DNA from: Parasynechococcus marenigrum WH 8102
GTDB taxonomy: Bacteria > Cyanobacteriota > Cyanobacteriia > PCC-6307 > Cyanobiaceae
Assembly: GCF_000195975.1 (NCBI RefSeq)
Contig: NC_005070.1
Coordinates: 570,001 to 602,000, forward strand
Direction: 5' to 3'
Length of the DNA: 32,000 bases
Position numbers and translations under genes: made by a program. Positions 7,305-18,852 of the stretch are shown one piece after another. The number at the start of each line of letters is the position of its first letter. The first letter of the stretch is position 1. The notes beneath the pieces are model-generated. The model had not been told where the DNA came from. It made no database searches and was given only the letters and a program-made list of their open reading frames with translations.

Positions 7305-7377
7305 AGCCGATGACCTGACTTGAACAGGCGACCCACGCTTTACGAAAGCGTTGCTCTACCGGCTGAGCTACATCGGC
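7305..7377 (-). tRNA. tRNA-Thr (anticodon CGU)
   Basis: The minus strand folds by hand into a cloverleaf. Acceptor stem GCCGATG/CATCGGC, D arm GCTC-AGCCGGTA-GAGC, anticodon arm ACGCT-TTCGTAA-AGCGT (CGT), variable loop GGGTC, T arm GCCTG-TTCAAGT-CAGGT, discriminator T. No CCA is encoded. Confidence 0.9.
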
Positions 7378-8454: not shown

Positions 8455-11400
8455 TTAGGTGGTGAGTTTGCGGCGCTGGGTGACCATCTTGAAGGCCTCA
8501 ATCCGGTCGCCGTCTTCCCAGTTGGCAAAGCGATCGGTGCCGACACCACACTCGAAGCCGGTGGCCACCTCCTTGACGTCGTCCTTGTTGCGGCGCAACG
8601 AGTCGAGGTCGCCGTCGTACACCACCTGGGAGCCGCGATGGACACGCACCTTGCAGTTGCGTTGCAACTTGCCGGTGGTGACGTAGCAGCCCGCAACAGC
8701 GCTCTTACCAATGGTAAACACCGCCCGCACTTCGGCTTCGCCGAGGGCTTCCTCCACCAGTTCGGGCTCCAACAAGCCCTCCATCGCCAACTGGATGTCC
8801 TCCAGCAGCTTGTAGATCACGTCGTAATCGCGCACATCCACGCCGGTGGCATCTGCTGCCTTCTTGGCGCCCGAGGCCATCGAGGTGTTGAAGCCAACGA
8901 TCACGGCGCCGGAGGCGGCCGCCAGGTCGACGTCTGTTTCGGTGACCTCACCCGGTGCCGAGAGCAGCACACGAACCTGGACCTCGTCCTTGGGCAATTG
9001 TTCAAGGGAGCCAAGGATTGCTTCCACAGAGCCCTGGACATCCGCCTTCAGGATCAAGTTCAGCTCCTTCAGCTCGCCTTCATTGGCCTGACCTGACATC
9101 GCTGTGAGCGACACCCGGCGCGAGGCCATCTGCTGCGCCAGGCGTGTGGCGCGTGCATCCGACGCACGATCTCCCACAACAGCCCGTGCCGATTTCTCGT
9201 CGGGATACACCTCGAATTCGTCGCCAGCGGTCGGAACCTCGCTGAAACCGAGAGCCTCAACGGCAAACGAAGGACCAGCCTCTTTGAGACGTTGGCGGTT
9301 GTCGTCGACCATGGCTCGCACCTTGCCAAGCACCGGCCCGGCCGCCACGACATCGCCGGTCTTGAGGGTGCCGTTCTGCACCAGCAGTGTGGCCACAGGA
9401 CCCTTGGCCTTGTCGAGGTGAGCCTCGATCACAGTGCCGCGGGCCAGGCGATCCGGATTGGCCTGCAGGTCTTCCACTTCGGTGACCAGCAGGAGCATCT
9501 CCAGCAACTTGTCGATGTTCTCGCCCTTGATGGCGCTCACCGGCACCATCACCACATCGCCGCCCCAGTCTTCCGCCAGAAGGTTCTGCTCGGACAGCTC
9601 CTGCTTCACCCGGTCAGGGGAAGCCCCTTCCTTATCGATTTTGTTGATCGCTACCACAATCGGTACCTCTGCAGCCCTGGCGTGGCTGATGGCTTCCAGC
9701 GTCTGGGGACGCACGCCGTCGTCAGCGGCGACTACCAGAACGGCCACATCCGTCACCTTGGTGCCGCGGGCCCGCATGGCCGTGAAGGCTTCGTGGCCCG
9801 GGGTGTCGAGGAAGGTGAGCTTGCGCGCTTCGTCGTTGTGGTCGATCTCGACCTGATAAGCACCGATGTGCTGGGTGATGCCGCCGGCCTCGCCGGCAGC
9901 CACCCGCGCCTTGCGGATCGCATCGAGAAGGCTCGTTTTGCCGTGGTCGACGTGACCCATGACCGTGACCACGGGTGGACGACGGATGAGGTGTTCCTTG
10001 TCGGCCTCTTCGATCATCTCGACGGTCTTTTTGGCCGCCTCCTCCACGTCGTCCTGGAGCACCGGCACGCCGAATTCTTCGGCCACCGTCTCGATGGTGT
10101 TCATGTCCAGGGTCTGGGTGACCGTGGCAATGATTCCCTTGAAGAACAGAGATTTGATGATCTCGGAGCTTTCGACACTGAGCATGTCGGCGAGCTCCTG
10201 CACCGTGAGGTTGTCCTCCGGAACGATGAGCATTTCCGGCCGCACCTGCTTGGCCTCGCGGGCAGCGCGCAGTTCCATCGCCCGACGCCGCTGGCGTTGA
10301 CGGGTGGTTTCCTTCTTCCGCTTCCGCATCGCCGCCATCGGCTTGGGAGCGGCCTTTCTCTGCGACTTCGGCTTGGCGGGGCGAGCCAGGCTGGCGGACA
10401 GGACCATGGCTTGCTGTTCGCCGGCGAATCCTCCGGTTTCAGCGGTCAGCGCATCGTCGTTCTCGCCGATGATGTGGACCTTCTGGCGCTGCTTCTGTGG
10501 CGAACGGCTGCGCAGGGCTTCCAGCTTGGCGCTGTCATCCCAGTCCGGACGTCCAGGCGGCGTTGACCGCCGGGGGCACCGGGACGGAAACCCCCCGGGC
10601 GACGCGGTGCGGTTGGGGGTGTGGGCCGGGCCACCGGTGGCGTGGCAGTTCCGGCACCGTCGCCAGCTTTGGTGGGGGCATCGGGTCGGCGGGGGGCAGG
10701 CGCCGCGGGGCGTCCAACGGGCTTCTGAAGTTGCATGAGCTCGCCCGGTGCCACGGGTTTGCGCATGCCGCTTGGCATGCCAGGGCGTTGCGGGCTACCG
10801 GCACCGGGGCGTGTTGGTGGGGCCGGACGACCGCCGCTTCCAGTGGAACTGCCGTCCCGGCGGATGGGCTTGCCCACCAGCTCCAGGGTGTTGCCGCCGC
10901 TGCGGGCCGGAGCGCCGGGTCGTGTCGGACGCCCAGGACTGCCGGGACGCTGAGGGACACCGGTTCCGGGGCGTTGCGGTGCACCAGCTCCACTGCGGGT
11001 GGGTGCACCGGTGCCTGGACGTCGTGGAACAGGCTTGCCCACCAGCTCAGGGCGAGGTGTGGGGCGCGTGGGTGGCCCCGCTTTGACGGGTGCTCCTGGA
11101 CGCGCTGGTGCTGGAGCCCCTGGACGGGTTGGAGCACCGGGGCGAGGTGCTGATCCGGGGCGGGAAACGATCTGTGGCTTCTGGCCAGCGCCTGGCGTTG
11201 GGCGGCTGGGGGCAGCTGCAGGCCGAGGTTTGGGTTGATCGGCTGAGGGACGCGCGGGTGCTGGACGGGCCGGAGCCGGTCGTGCCGGGGCTGGTTTGGC
11301 GGCAGCGGGTTTTGCTGGCGCGGGTTTTGCGACCGTTGGCTTAGCAACCGTTGGCTTAGCAACCGTTGGCTTAGCAACCGTTGGCTTGACGACTGTTGGG

Positions 11401-12284: not shown

Positions 12285-13708
12285 CGGGCAACCTCGCCGT
12301 CGTCCTCAGGGGCAGGTTCCTCGCTGGTCGGCTCCTCTCCGGGCATCTCTTCAGAAGCGGTGGCCTCGGTTTGCTCGCTTTCGCCCAACTGGTCTCCCTC
12401 CACGTAATCCTCATCGTCTTCAGGCAGCGGATAGAGCTCCCGCAGGCGAGCATCTTCTTCGGCCCGTGCGGCCTGCTCAGCAGCCAGCCGTTCCTCCGCT
12501 TCCATCTGCAGCGCCTCTTCCTGTTCCCGTTGAGAGATCAGTTCGGCAACCACGGCGTCTTCCGCGGACTGGTCGTACTCGGTGGAGTTTTTGATGTCGA
12601 GTTTCCAGCCCGTCAACCGTGCCGCCAGCCGCACGTTCTGCCCTTCACGACCGATGGCCAGGCTGAGTTGGTCGGGGGGAACCAGCACATGGGCGTGCTG
12701 ACCGACAGGATCCACCAGGCGAACCATTTCAACCCGCGCCGGACTGAGGGAGTTGGCGATGTACTGGCCGGGGTCCTGGGACCAGCGGATCACATCGATC
12801 TTCTCGCCGCGCAGTTCGTTCACCACCTGCTGAATGCGTGAACCGCGGGCGCCGATGCAGGCACCCACTGGATCCACTTCCCGTTCGATGCTGTCCACCG
12901 CCACCTTGGTGCGGGGGCCGACGGACCGTGATGGTGGGTTGGCTTCCCTTGCCACCGCCACGATCCGGACCGATCCCTCCTGGATTTCGGGCACCTCGTT
13001 TTCAAAGAGGTAAACGACCAAACCCGCATTGGAGCGGCTGACGAAAAGCTGCGGGCCGCGCCGCGGCACCTCGCTCACCTCTTTGAGGAACACCTTGAAG
13101 GTGGCATTGGCGCGGTAGTTGTCGTTGGGTAGCTGATCGCGGCGAGGCAGTTCGGCTTCCACTTCAGGCCGGCCCAACCCTGAGCTCACGGCCATGATCA
13201 CGGATTGACGCTCAAACCGAATCACCCGTGCGGTCAGCACAGGGTCTTCCAGATCGGCGAACTCCTCCTGGATCATGCGGCGCTGTTGATCCCGCAGCTT
13301 CTGGGCCAGCACCTGCTTTGTGGTGGCAGCCGCCATGCGGCCGAAATCCTCCTTCTCCGGAGTGACGTCAAGCACCACGGTGTCGCCCTCCTGGGCGTCG
13401 TCCGCCACCTGCATCACCTCCTGCAGGGCGATCTGGTGGTCTTCGCTTTCCACCTCCTCCACGATGATTTTGCTCGCCAGAACCCGGTAGCCCTCTTCCT
13501 CCAGGTCGAGTCCGACATCGAAATTGCTGAAATACTCCTCGTCAAAGGGGTCTTCGCTGATGCCCAAATACATGGTGCGCCGATAACGCTCATAGCCCTT
13601 CAGCAGGGCTTCGCGCAGGGCTGCTTCCACCACCTGAGGCGGCAACTTCTTCTCTTCGCTGATGTCGTCGATCAGGTTGCTGAGGCCTGGAAGCAGAACG
13701 AGAGCCAT
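12281..13708 (-). CDS. nusA: transcription termination/antitermination factor NusA
   Basis: 475 aa with full-length NusA similarity: N-terminal domain, S1 domain, KH domains ([24 protein letters not shown]), and an acidic C-terminal tail. Confidence 0.95.
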
Positions 13709-13754
13709 TGGGTCGAGGTGTCAGAGGTGATGAAAAGCTGTTCGGTTCGACTGG

Positions 13755-14255
13755 TTACGAGCCGGGACTTGTGAGGCGGACACTGAGCACGTGATCGCGG
13801 GGCAGGCGTTTGATCCGGCCGCGGATGTTGATCTGCAGCGTGTCCTCGTCTCGCTCCAGCAGCAGCCCTTCCAGCCGCTGTTCCGTGTCATCCCTGTCGC
13901 GATGCACGACTTCCACGGGGAAACCCCGGAAGGTCTGGAAGTCGCGATCGCTGGACAGAGTCTCCCCGATCCCGGGACTGCTGATCTCCAGAACATAGGC
14001 CTCGGTCAGCAGCTGGGCGCTCTCAAGGGCCTCTCCAAGGGTTCCACTGAAGCCGGCGCAATCATCCATGTTGACGTCAACACCGTTGCTGCGGCGGATG
14101 TGGACCTCCAACGTCATCGGGGCCAGATGCGTGAGCAGCTGGATGCCGCAGAGTTCAAAGCCCTGATCTGCGGCCACGGATGTGGCCAGGGTCTCGAGTT
14201 CAGGAAGCAGGGGATGCGGCAATGGAAACTGAGGTCGGGCCAGCCCGACGTGCAT
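13755..14255 (-). CDS. rimP: ribosome maturation factor RimP
   Basis: 166 aa with an EISSPGI motif typical of RimP, located directly upstream of nusA. Confidence 0.88.
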   Translation of the reverse strand: MHVGLARPQFPLPHPLLPELETLATSVAADQGFELCGIQLLTHLAPMTLEVHIRRSNGVDVNMDDCAGFSGTLGEALESAQLLTEAYVLEISSPGIGETLSSDRDFQTFRGFPVEVVHRDRDDTEQRLEGLLLERDEDTLQINIRGRIKRLPRDHVLSVRLTSPGS

Positions 14256-14328
14256 TCAGTTGTGGCCGATCTCCCTCGGGAGCTGCGCGTCGGACACAAA
14301 TTCAATGTATCCGACGGCCTGACGAACG

Positions 14329-14586
14329 TCAGCTCTTCGGCAGGTCAATGGATGGTGCATCGGGGAAGGCGTCACCCTTCTGCTCAACACCCCTAAGCTC
14401 GGGATCCTGATTGATGCACTGGCGATGTTGATCAGGCGTTTTAAGGTACTGGCAGACCCGGCTCCAAAGCTTGCTGCGGGTCCCTTTCGGACCATTGCTG
14501 AACTGAACGGCATCCAGCGTTCCGCCATTGGATTCAATCGACACCTGGCAGAGAGGGCAGCGAAGGATCTCCGGTGTGGCGGTCAC
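14329..14586 (-). CDS. small hypothetical 4-Cys (zinc-ribbon-like) protein
   Basis: 85-aa ATG ORF with CPLC near the N-terminus and C-x12-C (CQYLKTPDQHRQC) later. It lies 73 nt upstream of rimP on the same strand. No family was recognised. Confidence 0.45.
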   Translation of the reverse strand: MTATPEILRCPLCQVSIESNGGTLDAVQFSNGPKGTRSKLWSRVCQYLKTPDQHRQCINQDPELRGVEQKGDAFPDAPSIDLPKS

Positions 14587-14604
14587 GGTTCAATGGCAAA
14601 GCAC

Positions 14605-14630
14605 GACGGGACACTAATCAGTGCCCCGTC
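14605..14630 (-). terminator. terminator-like hairpin downstream of the RiPP cassette
   Basis: Minus strand GACGGGGCAC-TGATTA-GTGTCCCGTC forms a 10-bp stem with one mismatch, followed by GTGCTTTGCC, a weak U tract. It begins 16 nt after the stop of the 14646..15113 gene. Confidence 0.3.
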
Positions 14631-14645
14631 TGTTGCGCTGGTTAA

Positions 14646-15113
14646 TCAGTTGCAACCTTGAACGGAAATGCGGTAACTAAAACCAGTGGCTTTCGGGTCT
14701 TTGTTGGCCCCAATTTTGAAGTTCACCTGGCTGATGCTTTTGCCCTGAACCTGTGAAAAGGGCCCGAACATGCGGCCGGTGCCCAGTGGAGGCTGCAGCT
14801 GCTCATCCACAACCTTGAGGTTGCTGCCGTCACTGAATTTGAGGAAGACTTCGATCGGGTAGCTGGTGGAGTCGCTGGAATCGGCGGTGAAGAACAGCTT
14901 GAAGCTGCTGTAGGGCCGGTCCACCACGAAATCGGTGTTCCAGTTTGTGCGTCCGACTGTGTTTCCGATCAAACCCTTGGGGCGCTGCACTTTCTTTTTC
15001 ACGATGGCTTCGCCACCGCCAACGGGCTTGAGAAATGTGCAGGCCGCTTCTGAGGTGACGGGAGCCAGCAGCAGCAGAGCAGTGCCGCTGAGCAGTGAGA
15101 TCAAGCGAGACAT
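14646..15113 (-). CDS. secreted hypothetical protein co-oriented with and 8 nt downstream of the radical SAM maturase
   Basis: The ATG at 15113 gives MSRLISLLSGTALLLLAPVTSEA/ACTF, a Sec signal with an AXA-like site. The mature part of about 130 aa has beta-strand-like composition, with Cys at mature position 2 and at the penultimate position (..VQGCN). The ORF-track extension to 15248 overlaps the maturase and is discounted. Confidence 0.6.
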   Translation of the reverse strand: MSRLISLLSGTALLLLAPVTSEAACTFLKPVGGGEAIVKKKVQRPKGLIGNTVGRTNWNTDFVVDRPYSSFKLFFTADSSDSTSYPIEVFLKFSDGSNLKVVDEQLQPPLGTGRMFGPFSQVQGKSISQVNFKIGANKDPKATGFSYRISVQGCN

Positions 15114-15121
15114 GGATCGAT

Positions 15122-16306
15122 TCAGTGGGTTGGTTGGTGGGTGAGCGGAGGTCCGGCTTCGAAGCGTTCCAACAGCACCTGAACAGGGATCTGGGTGCCG
15201 AAGCGGCAGGCGTTGGTCTCGCTGGAGGCGAGGCTGCCGTGTTCCCAAAATTTGTTGCTGCCGTTTCCGCCACCGCAGAGGCCGAAGTATTCACAGCCGT
15301 TGTGGCAGGTCTCCACACCGCGGCTCATGTTCGTGAAGAGGCGCTGGAACTGATCGGTCTGGGTGGACTCCACCAGGGACACGTCCTTCAGGTTTCCCAG
15401 GTTGAAGGTGCCGTAGCGATCGCTTGCTACCGACAGGAGCTCAGGGTCGAAGGTGGAGAAGTTGCCCTGCCAGTCGACGCTGAGGATGGAGAAGGGGCGG
15501 TTCAGTTCGTTCTGGGTCATGCGTTGGTTTCCCTGGATCAGGCTGATCACCTGCTGGAACTCGCGCAGAACCACGGGATAGCCGTCCTGTTCACTGAGGT
15601 GCCAGAAGGCCCTCAGAAAATCGCGGTACTTGGCTTCCATGGCTGAGCCCTGCATGGAGGAGCTGGTGTGAATGCCCTCCTGCTCTTCCACGTTGAAGCC
15701 GACATCGTTGATGCCGTGATCGCGGAAGAAGCGGTACATCAGCTCCGGCTGCTCCATGGCATCGGCGGTGAGCACCGAAATGCAGTGGAAGGGCACATTG
15801 TTGCGATGCAGAGCTTCAATCCCCTTCATCGCCAGGGCGTGGGAACCGCGCCCGTTGCGGAAGCGGCGGTGGGCGTCGTGAATCTCTTCAGGACCATCCA
15901 CGCTGATGCCCACCACGATGCGGTTGGGGTGGAAGCAATCGCACCAGGCGTCGTTGATCAGCGTGGCGTTGGTCTGCACGTGCTGGGTGAACTCCAGCCC
16001 TTCGGCACCACGCTCAGCAAGGCTGCACTGCAGGATTACCGTGGCCTCGTCGTACCACCCCGTGGGCAATGTGAGGGGTTCGCCGGCGTGCCACACCAGC
16101 GAAAACTCGGGGCCGGCGTAGGGGCTCTCGAGGATGCGCTGCACCAGTAAAGGCAACAGCTCGAGATAGAAGACCCGTTTCTTCTGCCGATCAGGCAGAT
16201 AGCAGTAGGAGCAATCGAGATTGCACAGCGAGGTGGATTGCACCACCACCAGACCGATGGGCCCGAACCGGTTGAGGTCGGGCCCAGATTTCAACGAACT
16301 GATCAC
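15122..16306 (-). CDS. grrM: radical SAM/SPASM peptide maturase, GrrM/OscB-type (cyclophane-forming)
   Basis: The CNLDCSYC radical SAM motif (Cx3Cx2C) lies at 16202-16225. The C-terminal Cys cluster CHNGCEYFGLC-x22-C is consistent with an auxiliary Fe-S (SPASM/twitch) domain. The gene is adjacent to a Gly-rich repeat precursor. I chose the GTG at 16306 as the start. It overlaps the precursor stop as GTGA and places the Cx3Cx2C about 28 aa from the N-terminus. Confidence 0.88.
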   Translation of the reverse strand: MISSLKSGPDLNRFGPIGLVVVQSTSLCNLDCSYCYLPDRQKKRVFYLELLPLLVQRILESPYAGPEFSLVWHAGEPLTLPTGWYDEATVILQCSLAERGAEGLEFTQHVQTNATLINDAWCDCFHPNRIVVGISVDGPEEIHDAHRRFRNGRGSHALAMKGIEALHRNNVPFHCISVLTADAMEQPELMYRFFRDHGINDVGFNVEEQEGIHTSSSMQGSAMEAKYRDFLRAFWHLSEQDGYPVVLREFQQVISLIQGNQRMTQNELNRPFSILSVDWQGNFSTFDPELLSVASDRYGTFNLGNLKDVSLVESTQTDQFQRLFTNMSRGVETCHNGCEYFGLCGGGNGSNKFWEHGSLASSETNACRFGTQIPVQVLLERFEAGPPLTHQPTH

Positions 16307-16710
16307 CAGTTGACGAATCCGCCGCCGCCGTTGCCCCAGGCACCGCCGCCGTTGCCCCAGGCACCGCCGCCGTTGCGCCAACCACCGTGGTAGCCGCCAT
16401 TCCCCCAGGTGTTACGGCTGTTGCTCCACTTATTACCGCCTTTGCCGTTCTTCCATTTTCCACTGCCGTAGCTGTTGCTGAATTTGTGGCCGCCGCCATT
16501 GCCCCACTTGCTCTTGGCCACCAGTTCACCGTCGTTGTCGATGGTCTTCAGCAGGGAGCTCCAATCACCGTTGCGAACGGAATCAATGCGGGCCTCGATG
16601 CTGTTGTTCAGCTGATCAGGTGAGCTGTACGTCGCGCTGGCTTCAGCGGTTTGGCAGAGAACGGCGCTGGAAGCAATGAGGGCCTGAAAAGCGATGAGCG
16701 AACGGTTCAT
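16303..16710 (-). CDS. grrA: rSAM-associated glycine-rich repeat RiPP precursor (GrrA/OscA-like)
   Basis: 135 aa from the ATG at 16710. It has a signal peptide MNRSLIAFQALIASSAVLCQTAEA, a leader-like region of about 44 aa, and a 67-aa core WGNGGGHKFSNSYGSGKWKNGKGGNKWSNSRNTWGNGGYHGGWRNGGGAWGNGGGAWGNGGGGFVNW. The core has nine (W/F)-X-N motifs. Confidence 0.85.
   Translation of the reverse strand: MNRSLIAFQALIASSAVLCQTAEASATYSSPDQLNNSIEARIDSVRNGDWSSLLKTIDNDGELVAKSKWGNGGGHKFSNSYGSGKWKNGKGGNKWSNSRNTWGNGGYHGGWRNGGGAWGNGGGAWGNGGGGFVNW
16322..16380 (-). repeat. 21-bp in-frame tandem repeat in the precursor core (WGNGGGA units)
   Basis: gttgccccaggcaccgccgcc at 16330-16350 is repeated exactly at 16351-16371, with partial copies on both sides. 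Confidence 0.8.
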
Positions 16711-16756
16711 GACAAAGGAAGAAGTGATGTTGAAAGGCTTGTGTCGAGGTGTTTGT

Positions 16757-18852
<2,096 letters not shown>

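Follow-up and report, generated by a model that had tools for sequence, protein, structure and literature searches.

A probable, partly decayed copy of the cyanobacterial GRRM system next to rimP in Parasynechococcus marenigrum WH 8102

Which genes make up the radical S-adenosylmethionine (SAM) peptide-modification cassette that lies next to rimP in Parasynechococcus marenigrum WH 8102, and in what state is this cassette? The question was addressed with a stretch of 32,000 nucleotides of the genome (assembly GCF_000195975.1, contig NC_005070.1, positions 570,001 to 602,000), which is called the window throughout and to whose own numbering the coordinates refer. An earlier note on this DNA, made from the sequence alone, had described three tightly packed minus-strand genes, namely a precursor gene, a radical SAM/SPASM enzyme gene and, as third member of the cassette, a gene for a 155-residue protein with a signal peptide. 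The three open reading frames and their packing were confirmed. The precursor gene grrA (16710->16303, minus strand) starts with ATG and encodes 135 amino acids. The maturase gene grrM (16306->15122, minus strand) encodes 394 amino acids, and its GTG start shares 4 nucleotides (GTGA) with the TGA stop of grrA; an overlap of this kind was found again in at least nine related loci. The third frame, termed P3 (15113->14646, minus strand), encodes a predicted secreted protein of 155 amino acids, and its ATG lies 8 nucleotides past the grrM stop. The membership of the cassette turned out to be a different one, with the third place belonging to the gene grrP. Very probably the locus holds the curated GRRM system of cyanobacteria, in the gene order grrP-grrA-grrM and partly decayed; its product would be an exported, cyclophane-stapled GrrA with GrrP as its partner.

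The three GRRM genes of the window

The families to which the earlier note had assigned precursor and enzyme, TIGR04260 and TIGR04261, were borne out by profile searches, in which both proteins scored above the NCBIfam curated cut-offs. GrrA reached 82.6 bits (E = 3.1e-23; cut-off 31) against TIGR04260, the GrrA/OscA1 family of cyclophane-containing, radical SAM-modified RiPPs (peptides that are made on the ribosome and modified after translation). Its C-terminal half contains seven W-x-N and two F-x-N motifs, which occupy residues 69–134 (16506->16309), and glycine accounts for 39% of the motif segment (about residues 69–135). GrrA thus shows the profile score, the Gly-rich aromatic-x-Asn repeats and the gene position adjoining the maturase that mark a member of this family. 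The N-terminus (residues 1–24) resembles a signal peptide, with MNR followed by a hydrophobic stretch and A-E-A. This pattern of charged residues, hydrophobic stretch and AxA is kept in 14 GrrA homologues, and besides the N-terminus and the Gly-rich half the protein possesses a conserved region of about 45 amino acids.

The repeat region (16303–16400 of the window) was found to differ between near-identical strains. On the related contig L003 (4425–4811) GrrA comprises 128 amino acids compared to 135 in the window, having one 7-residue WGNGGGA unit fewer, and on the metagenome contig L085 GrrA reads GWRN where the window reads AWGN.

GrrM matched TIGR04261 with 574.6 bits (E = 7.9e-173; cut-off 310) and aligned to model positions 1–362 of 363. 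All other radical SAM maturase models of NCBIfam remained under their cut-offs, and Pfam recognised the radical SAM core only (PF04055). The profile comparison that the earlier note had proposed therefore places the enzyme in a radical SAM peptide-maturase family; P3 matched no model in Pfam or NCBIfam. The CX3CX2C motif of GrrM is C28-x3-C32-x2-C35 at residues 28–35 (16225->16202), and four cysteines at positions 334, 338, 344 and 367 (15307->15206) are located in the C-terminal part. The protein begins about 20 residues ahead of the radical SAM core, too short a stretch to hold an N-terminal peptide-recognition domain of the size of a RiPP recognition element. In a protein search the 120 closest matches listed were all picocyanobacterial. 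Among them, a Synechococcus homologue from RefSeq with 85% identity is already called GrrM/OscB.

The gene directly upstream of grrA had previously been read as a decayed transporter gene that flanks the cassette. It is a 292-codon frame on the minus strand (17635->16757) with two nonsense codons, and it encodes an orphan substrate-binding-like lipoprotein with the lipobox L-S-A-C at residues 15–18. When both stops were masked, the translated protein reached 310.4 bits (cut-off 190) against TIGR04262, the model of the extracellular substrate binding-like orphan protein GrrP, and 382 bits were obtained for the undamaged homologue of WH7803. The decay was thus correctly recognised; it consists of two in-frame stops, TGA at codon 128 (17254–17252) and TAA at codon 243 (16912–16910). 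The transporter assignment had to be abandoned in favour of GrrP, the true third gene of the cassette. No ABC permease, ATPase or other transporter genes were found in its neighbourhood.

Two other explanations for the state of grrP were considered. A frameshift was ruled out by tblastn and translation, as a single high-scoring segment pair in one frame spans 17635–16769 and the frame is interrupted by two nonsense substitutions. An error of sequencing or assembly was ruled out because the same stops occur on contigs L001 and L003, which originate from other samples. On contig L085, grrP is intact and the two stop sites read TCA (Ser) and TAC (Tyr), whereas the window copy is not intact. Based on the match of the masked protein to TIGR04262, the curated system is GrrP-GrrA-GrrM, and all three components can be recognised in the window with GrrP inactivated.

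Gain, loss and decay of the grrP-grrA-grrM unit

Related loci were collected by a scan with a P3 profile using one genome per species. Of the 252 loci obtained the best 80 were kept, nearly all of them labelled picocyanobacteria or other cyanobacteria. Their open reading frames were annotated by BLAST against the window proteins, and 74 loci were informative. Wherever a locus with GrrM covered the corresponding stretch, an intact GrrP of 286–380 amino acids was encoded directly upstream of a GrrA, with the exception of the window lineage and of locus L008. The loci L011, L013 and L017 show the gene order nblD-P3-rimP, and the order in WH7803 (L023) is nblD-grrP-grrA-grrM-P3-rimP. A second comparison is provided by the close relative L056, whose order htrA-P3-nblD-rimP is the frame of the window (htrA-grrP-grrA-grrM-P3-nblD-rimP, with grrP broken) minus the Grr genes. 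In both of these clean comparisons grrP-grrA-grrM is the unit that was gained or lost, and P3 stays in place. This outcome of the synteny survey, which had been suggested in the earlier note, contradicts the cassette as it was first drawn: the three Grr genes are present or absent as a unit, and P3 remains where they are missing.

Modules of grrP and grrA were also duplicated jointly in four loci with only one grrM. The copies stand in tandem in L005 and L007, whereas L016 and L042 carry the second module on the opposite side of grrM-P3. This co-duplication is the main support for GrrP as the partner of GrrA. Other arrangements were observed as well. Prochlorococcus MIT 0707 (L020) contains one grrP and two grrA genes, with P3 3.7 kb off. 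L029 (821–7113) and L031 (3652–8094) contain an orphan grrP-grrA pair with a P3 paralogue 2.7–4.5 kb away and unrelated genes in between; no grrM was found in the available sequence of these two loci.

The state of the system in the window lineage was assessed by comparison with close relatives. Contig L085 and window positions 12752–17939 share 99.3% identity and differ by 35 substitutions, with no insertions or deletions. In grrP, grrA and grrM together, 14 nonsynonymous and 3 synonymous codons differ between the two sequences. In contrast, 0 nonsynonymous and 12 synonymous codons differ in nblD, rimP and nusA (Fisher's exact test, p = 1e-5). For GrrM, 12 outgroups showed that four of the five differences, D47Y, R127P, R189L and D326N, are derived in the window. 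Asp47 and Arg127 are invariant in 119 of the 119 other GrrM homologue clusters listed, and position 326 is Asp in 116 and Glu in 3 of these clusters, so that Tyr47, Pro127 and Asn326 are unique to the window. The fourth derived replacement, R189L, affects a variable site. A more advanced state was found in the single-cell genome of Synechococcus sp. AG-670-A05 (L008, 7570–10462), where stops or frameshifts interrupt grrP, grrA, grrM and P3. The flanking genes htrA, nblD, rimP and nusA are intact in this genome, and the sequence is free of ambiguous bases.

Taken together, the stops, the nonsynonymous excess, the unique GrrM residues and the state of L008 indicate that the Grr system in this lineage is probably under relaxed selection. 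They further suggest that the system is being lost here, as one instance of repeated cassette loss in this group, and the Grr system of this particular strain may already be non-functional.

In its strongest form this argument would turn the whole cassette of the strain into a non-functional relic from which no mature product is formed, so that the locus would document the decay of genes and not a working pathway. We regard this as quite possible, although it falls somewhat short of what we would call probable. It is favoured by the two nonsense codons in grrP and by four window-specific replacements in GrrM, three of which affect sites conserved in 116–119 of the 119 clusters listed. The ratio of nonsynonymous to synonymous codon differences, 14:3 in the Grr genes compared to 0:12 in the flanks, points in the same direction. 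L008 would be a close relative in which such decay has run to its end. The cassette is missing from nine genomes in which P3 is retained upstream of rimP, and the close relative L056 shows the same htrA-P3-nblD-rimP frame as the window. However, the frames of grrA and grrM are free of stops and frameshifts, the replacements in GrrM affect none of its cluster-binding cysteines, and at one of the five GrrM sites that differ the derived state is that of L085 and not that of the window. The substitution counts behind the relic reading are small, and the peptide may be made without any need for GrrP. A partly decayed copy of the GRRM system is the preferred description of the locus.

P3 and the surroundings of the cassette

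P3 is the protein that the earlier note had counted as the third cassette member. Its signal peptide ends with S-E-A, and two invariant cysteines, Cys25 and Cys154, stand at the start and at the end of the mature chain. Altogether 585 homologues were found, and they share a well-conserved core. The family is small: a profile search yielded only 181 clusters among 1.84 billion representatives, and Pfam recognised nothing above threshold in ten distant members. It nevertheless spans the cyanobacteria and includes proteins from Cyanobacterium, Geminocystis, Hydrococcus, Leptolyngbya and Synechocystis. The AlphaFold model of P3, with a predicted local distance difference test score (pLDDT) of 81.9, is an all-beta sandwich of nine strands. 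Comparison with solved structures gave only generic beta-sandwich or jelly-roll matches with template modelling (TM) scores of at most 0.5, among them a tailspike, the carbohydrate-binding module of AlgX and APC10.

Three distant relatives of P3 (P0302, P0321 and P0325), which belong to no Pfam family, consist of two tandem domain copies, each with an N- and C-terminal cysteine pair. Synechococcus sp. RSCCF101 (L004, 6001–7451) encodes two P3 paralogues about 550 bp apart with one small gene between them. A gene with a prepilin-type N-methyl domain is located about 1.6 kb upstream of these paralogues, and no radical SAM gene is found nearby.

Among the 74 informative loci, 22 encode GrrM immediately upstream of P3 and one encodes it 3.7 kb away. 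Nine loci carry P3 at the rimP position without any Grr gene, and in the remaining 42 P3 is found elsewhere without GrrM. Co-inheritance of P3 with grrA and grrM was thus not observed across these genomes. In addition, relatives of P3 without a radical SAM or binding-protein neighbour are present in Cyanobacterium aponinum, Leptothermofonsia and Synechococcus PCC 7502. Judged from these locus counts and from the stand-alone relatives in three genomes, P3 appears to be a resident neighbour next to which the GRRM genes were placed and not a defining component of the system. In the window itself P3 is probably co-transcribed with the Grr genes because the spacer to grrM measures 8 nucleotides.

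The close spacing also raises the alternative that grrA-grrM-P3 forms a functional cassette in which P3 is a dedicated accessory, for example a periplasmic chaperone, a receptor or a processing factor for modified GrrA. We consider this unlikely. It is true that P3 begins 8 nucleotides after grrM in the window, overlaps or abuts grrM in L006, L007, L009, L012, L014 and L051 and still adjoins it in the rearranged loci L016 and L042. The 22 loci with GrrM directly upstream, the decay of P3 along with grrP, grrA and grrM in L008 and the P3 paralogue 2.7–4.5 kb from the orphan grrP-grrA pairs of L029 and L031 can be added to this list. However, P3 is retained with 61–67% identity at the rimP locus of the nine Grr-less genomes and occurs elsewhere without GrrM in 42 loci. 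Some genomes, such as that of WH7803 (L023, L033), contain extra copies, and the family is distributed cyanobacteria-wide, with P3 standing alone in the three genomes named above. An NCBIfam model that ties a protein to GRRM exists for GrrP and none for P3. Finally, the joint decay in L008 is equally well explained if P3 lacks a promoter of its own there and its expression was lost with the operon.

Downstream of P3, the earlier note had pointed out a terminator-like hairpin. The strong stem was confirmed. The stem-loop (14630->14605, minus strand, between P3 and nblD) consists of an 11-bp stem and a 4-nucleotide loop, and its minimum free energy is −24.7 kcal/mol with z = −3.8; none of 200 shuffled sequences folded as well. 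Its description as terminator-like is justified only in part, since the hairpin has no U-tract and a consensus scan of positions 14200–18000 found no terminator site. Stem-loops with z ≤ −2 were detected at the corresponding position in four of six relatives, including L056 which has no Grr genes. The hairpin may mark the transcript end or serve as a processing or stabilising element.

The remaining neighbours are of interest as genomic context only. The open reading frame for 85 amino acids between P3 and rimP (14329–14586, minus strand) belongs to the nblD family (NF053522, 84.1 bits; cut-off 80). NblD is a small protein with a link to the breakdown of phycobilisomes, and its gene is located upstream of grrP and not downstream of P3 in WH7803-type genomes. 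In the window nblD is followed by the housekeeping genes rimP (14255->13755, minus strand) and nusA (13708->12281, minus strand), for which RimP_N and NusA domains were called by Pfam on the identical contig L001. This flank is kept in related loci, and the location of the cassette beside rimP-nusA-infB is as the earlier note had described it. In the window, infB (minus strand) is split into two open reading frames (11936->10446 and 10407->8455) by a 1-nucleotide deletion at 10557. The deletion falls in a run of C (CGCCG-CCTGG compared to CGCCGCCCTGG). In L001 and L002, which are otherwise identical to the window, the additional C is present and infB forms one long frame, and relatives possess a single open reading frame for 1113–1149 amino acids. 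Most likely the split is an error of sequencing or assembly in the source of the window, or a rare variant. A tRNA-Thr gene (anticodon CGT; 7305–7377, minus strand) was the sole match of Rfam or ARAGORN in the window.

Proposed mechanism, related systems and implications

OscA and OscB constitute a triceptide pathway of Oscillatoria (Nguyen et al. 2020, as summarised in PMC11002830). OscB forms links between residues i and i + 2, connecting C7 of Trp to the C-beta of Asn or Asp and C4 of Phe to the C-beta of Asn, and products with such OscB-type three-residue cyclophanes are called triceptides (PMC11002830). The pair from the window belongs to the same enzyme family (OscB, IPR026357; TIGR04261, named GrrM/OscB in NCBIfam) and carries the same type of substrate motif, Trp-x-Asn and Phe-x-Asn. 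The placement of the cassette in the OscB-type triceptide family by the earlier note agrees with this literature and with the GrrM/OscB naming.

By analogy to OscB, GrrM would act in the cytoplasm, generate a 5'-deoxyadenosyl radical and take a hydrogen from the C-beta of Asn. It would then join this C-beta to C7 of the Trp, or C4 of the Phe, two residues upstream. Up to nine three-residue cyclophanes could be formed in GrrA in this way, each with a mass loss of 2 Da. After modification in the cytoplasm GrrA might be exported by the Sec route. The anaerobic sulfatase-maturating enzyme (anSME) likewise acts in the cytoplasm on substrates that carry an export signal, the sulfatases. Mature GrrA would accordingly resemble a stapled, Gly-rich protein of about 110 amino acids outside the cytoplasm and would not be a short peptide released from its leader. 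GrrP, as a lipid-anchored orphan binding protein without a transporter partner, is a candidate for the extracytoplasmic partner of GrrA. The signal-like N-terminus of GrrA and the lipobox of GrrP together point to an extracytoplasmic site of action for the product.

The locus shares with the GRRM system of NCBIfam three proteins that score above the cut-offs, the gene order grrP-grrA-grrM and the translational coupling of grrA to grrM. It differs in the pseudogene state of grrP and in the three unique replacements at conserved sites of GrrM. The triceptide synthases ChlB, XncB and MscB resemble GrrM in the combination of a radical SAM core with a C-terminal cysteine cluster. Their motifs differ from those of GrrA: the aromatic residue is Tyr, His or Phe, and Arg, Ser or Asp serves as acceptor. 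The closest solved structures to GrrM are those of anSME (4k36–4k39, 85 bits), which also lacks an N-terminal peptide-recognition domain, and of the triceptide synthase ChlB (9gm3), a distant match with 66.9 bits (E = 1.4e-17). The GrrM stretch that aligns to the cysteines of the first auxiliary cluster of anSME contains no cysteine, and the same holds for ChlB. The cysteine pattern of GrrM is therefore consistent with one auxiliary cluster and not with the canonical two, whereas anSME possesses two and catalyzes the formation of formylglycine instead of a C–C cross-link.

That GrrM is itself an anSME to which GrrA is unrelated is extremely improbable: although one source labels the close homologue P0149 "Anaerobic sulfatase-maturating enzyme" and anSME is the top solved-structure match, GrrM stays far below the cut-off of TIGR03942 (154.1 bits; cut-off 349.45) and clearly exceeds that of TIGR04261 (575 compared to 310), lacks the cysteines of the first auxiliary cluster and has no sulfatase encoded in its neighbourhood, and the 4-nucleotide overlap of grrA and grrM in at least nine loci argues against such a role.

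Several points weigh against the preferred reading of the locus as a partly decayed copy of the GRRM system with an exported, stapled GrrA and GrrP as its partner. GrrM does not appear to be a canonical seven-cysteine SPASM enzyme, although ChlB is alike in this respect. The N-terminus of GrrA could, instead of or in addition to directing export, be a leader recognised by GrrM. The open reading frames of grrA and grrM are intact, an identical GrrM is encoded on 25 contigs among the matches listed, and the grrA-grrM pair may still work without GrrP. The consensus scan mentioned above found no promoter site in positions 14200–18000. The cross-link chemistry, the export route and the binding by GrrP are all inferred, and our literature search found no experiment with a GrrA or GrrM from picocyanobacteria. 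It also found nothing on the physiological role or location of GRRM products in cyanobacteria or on the reason for their constant association with an orphan binding protein, in line with the statement of the earlier note that the role is uncharacterised.

The locus is an unremarkable representative of a system that has been catalogued before, and it is recognisable as such from the curated models. It leaves the general picture of GRRM products as it was before; for annotation the result is routine, and for the planning of triceptide experiments it is of modest use. For such experiments the gene set is corrected to grrP-grrA-grrM in place of grrA-grrM-P3, and the co-duplicated grrP-grrA modules point to a cognate pair. 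The near-isogenic variants with intact and broken grrP, together with the fully decayed relative, could help to show whether the system is of importance in nature. Beyond this, and only as a tentative proposal that we regard as rather doubtful in its entirety, GrrA might differ from the usual small RiPPs and be a Sec-exported, multiply cyclophane-stapled, Gly-rich protein of about 110 amino acids, with the lipid-anchored GrrP as its orphan receptor. Cognate pairs of ligand and receptor would travel and duplicate together and fulfil a signalling or envelope-structural role in the periplasm or at the cell surface; the pair would be dispensable and undergo repeated loss in coastal Synechococcus. 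If this were true, the window with its broken grrP, L085 with an intact grrP and L008 with all genes broken would represent three natural stages of this loss.

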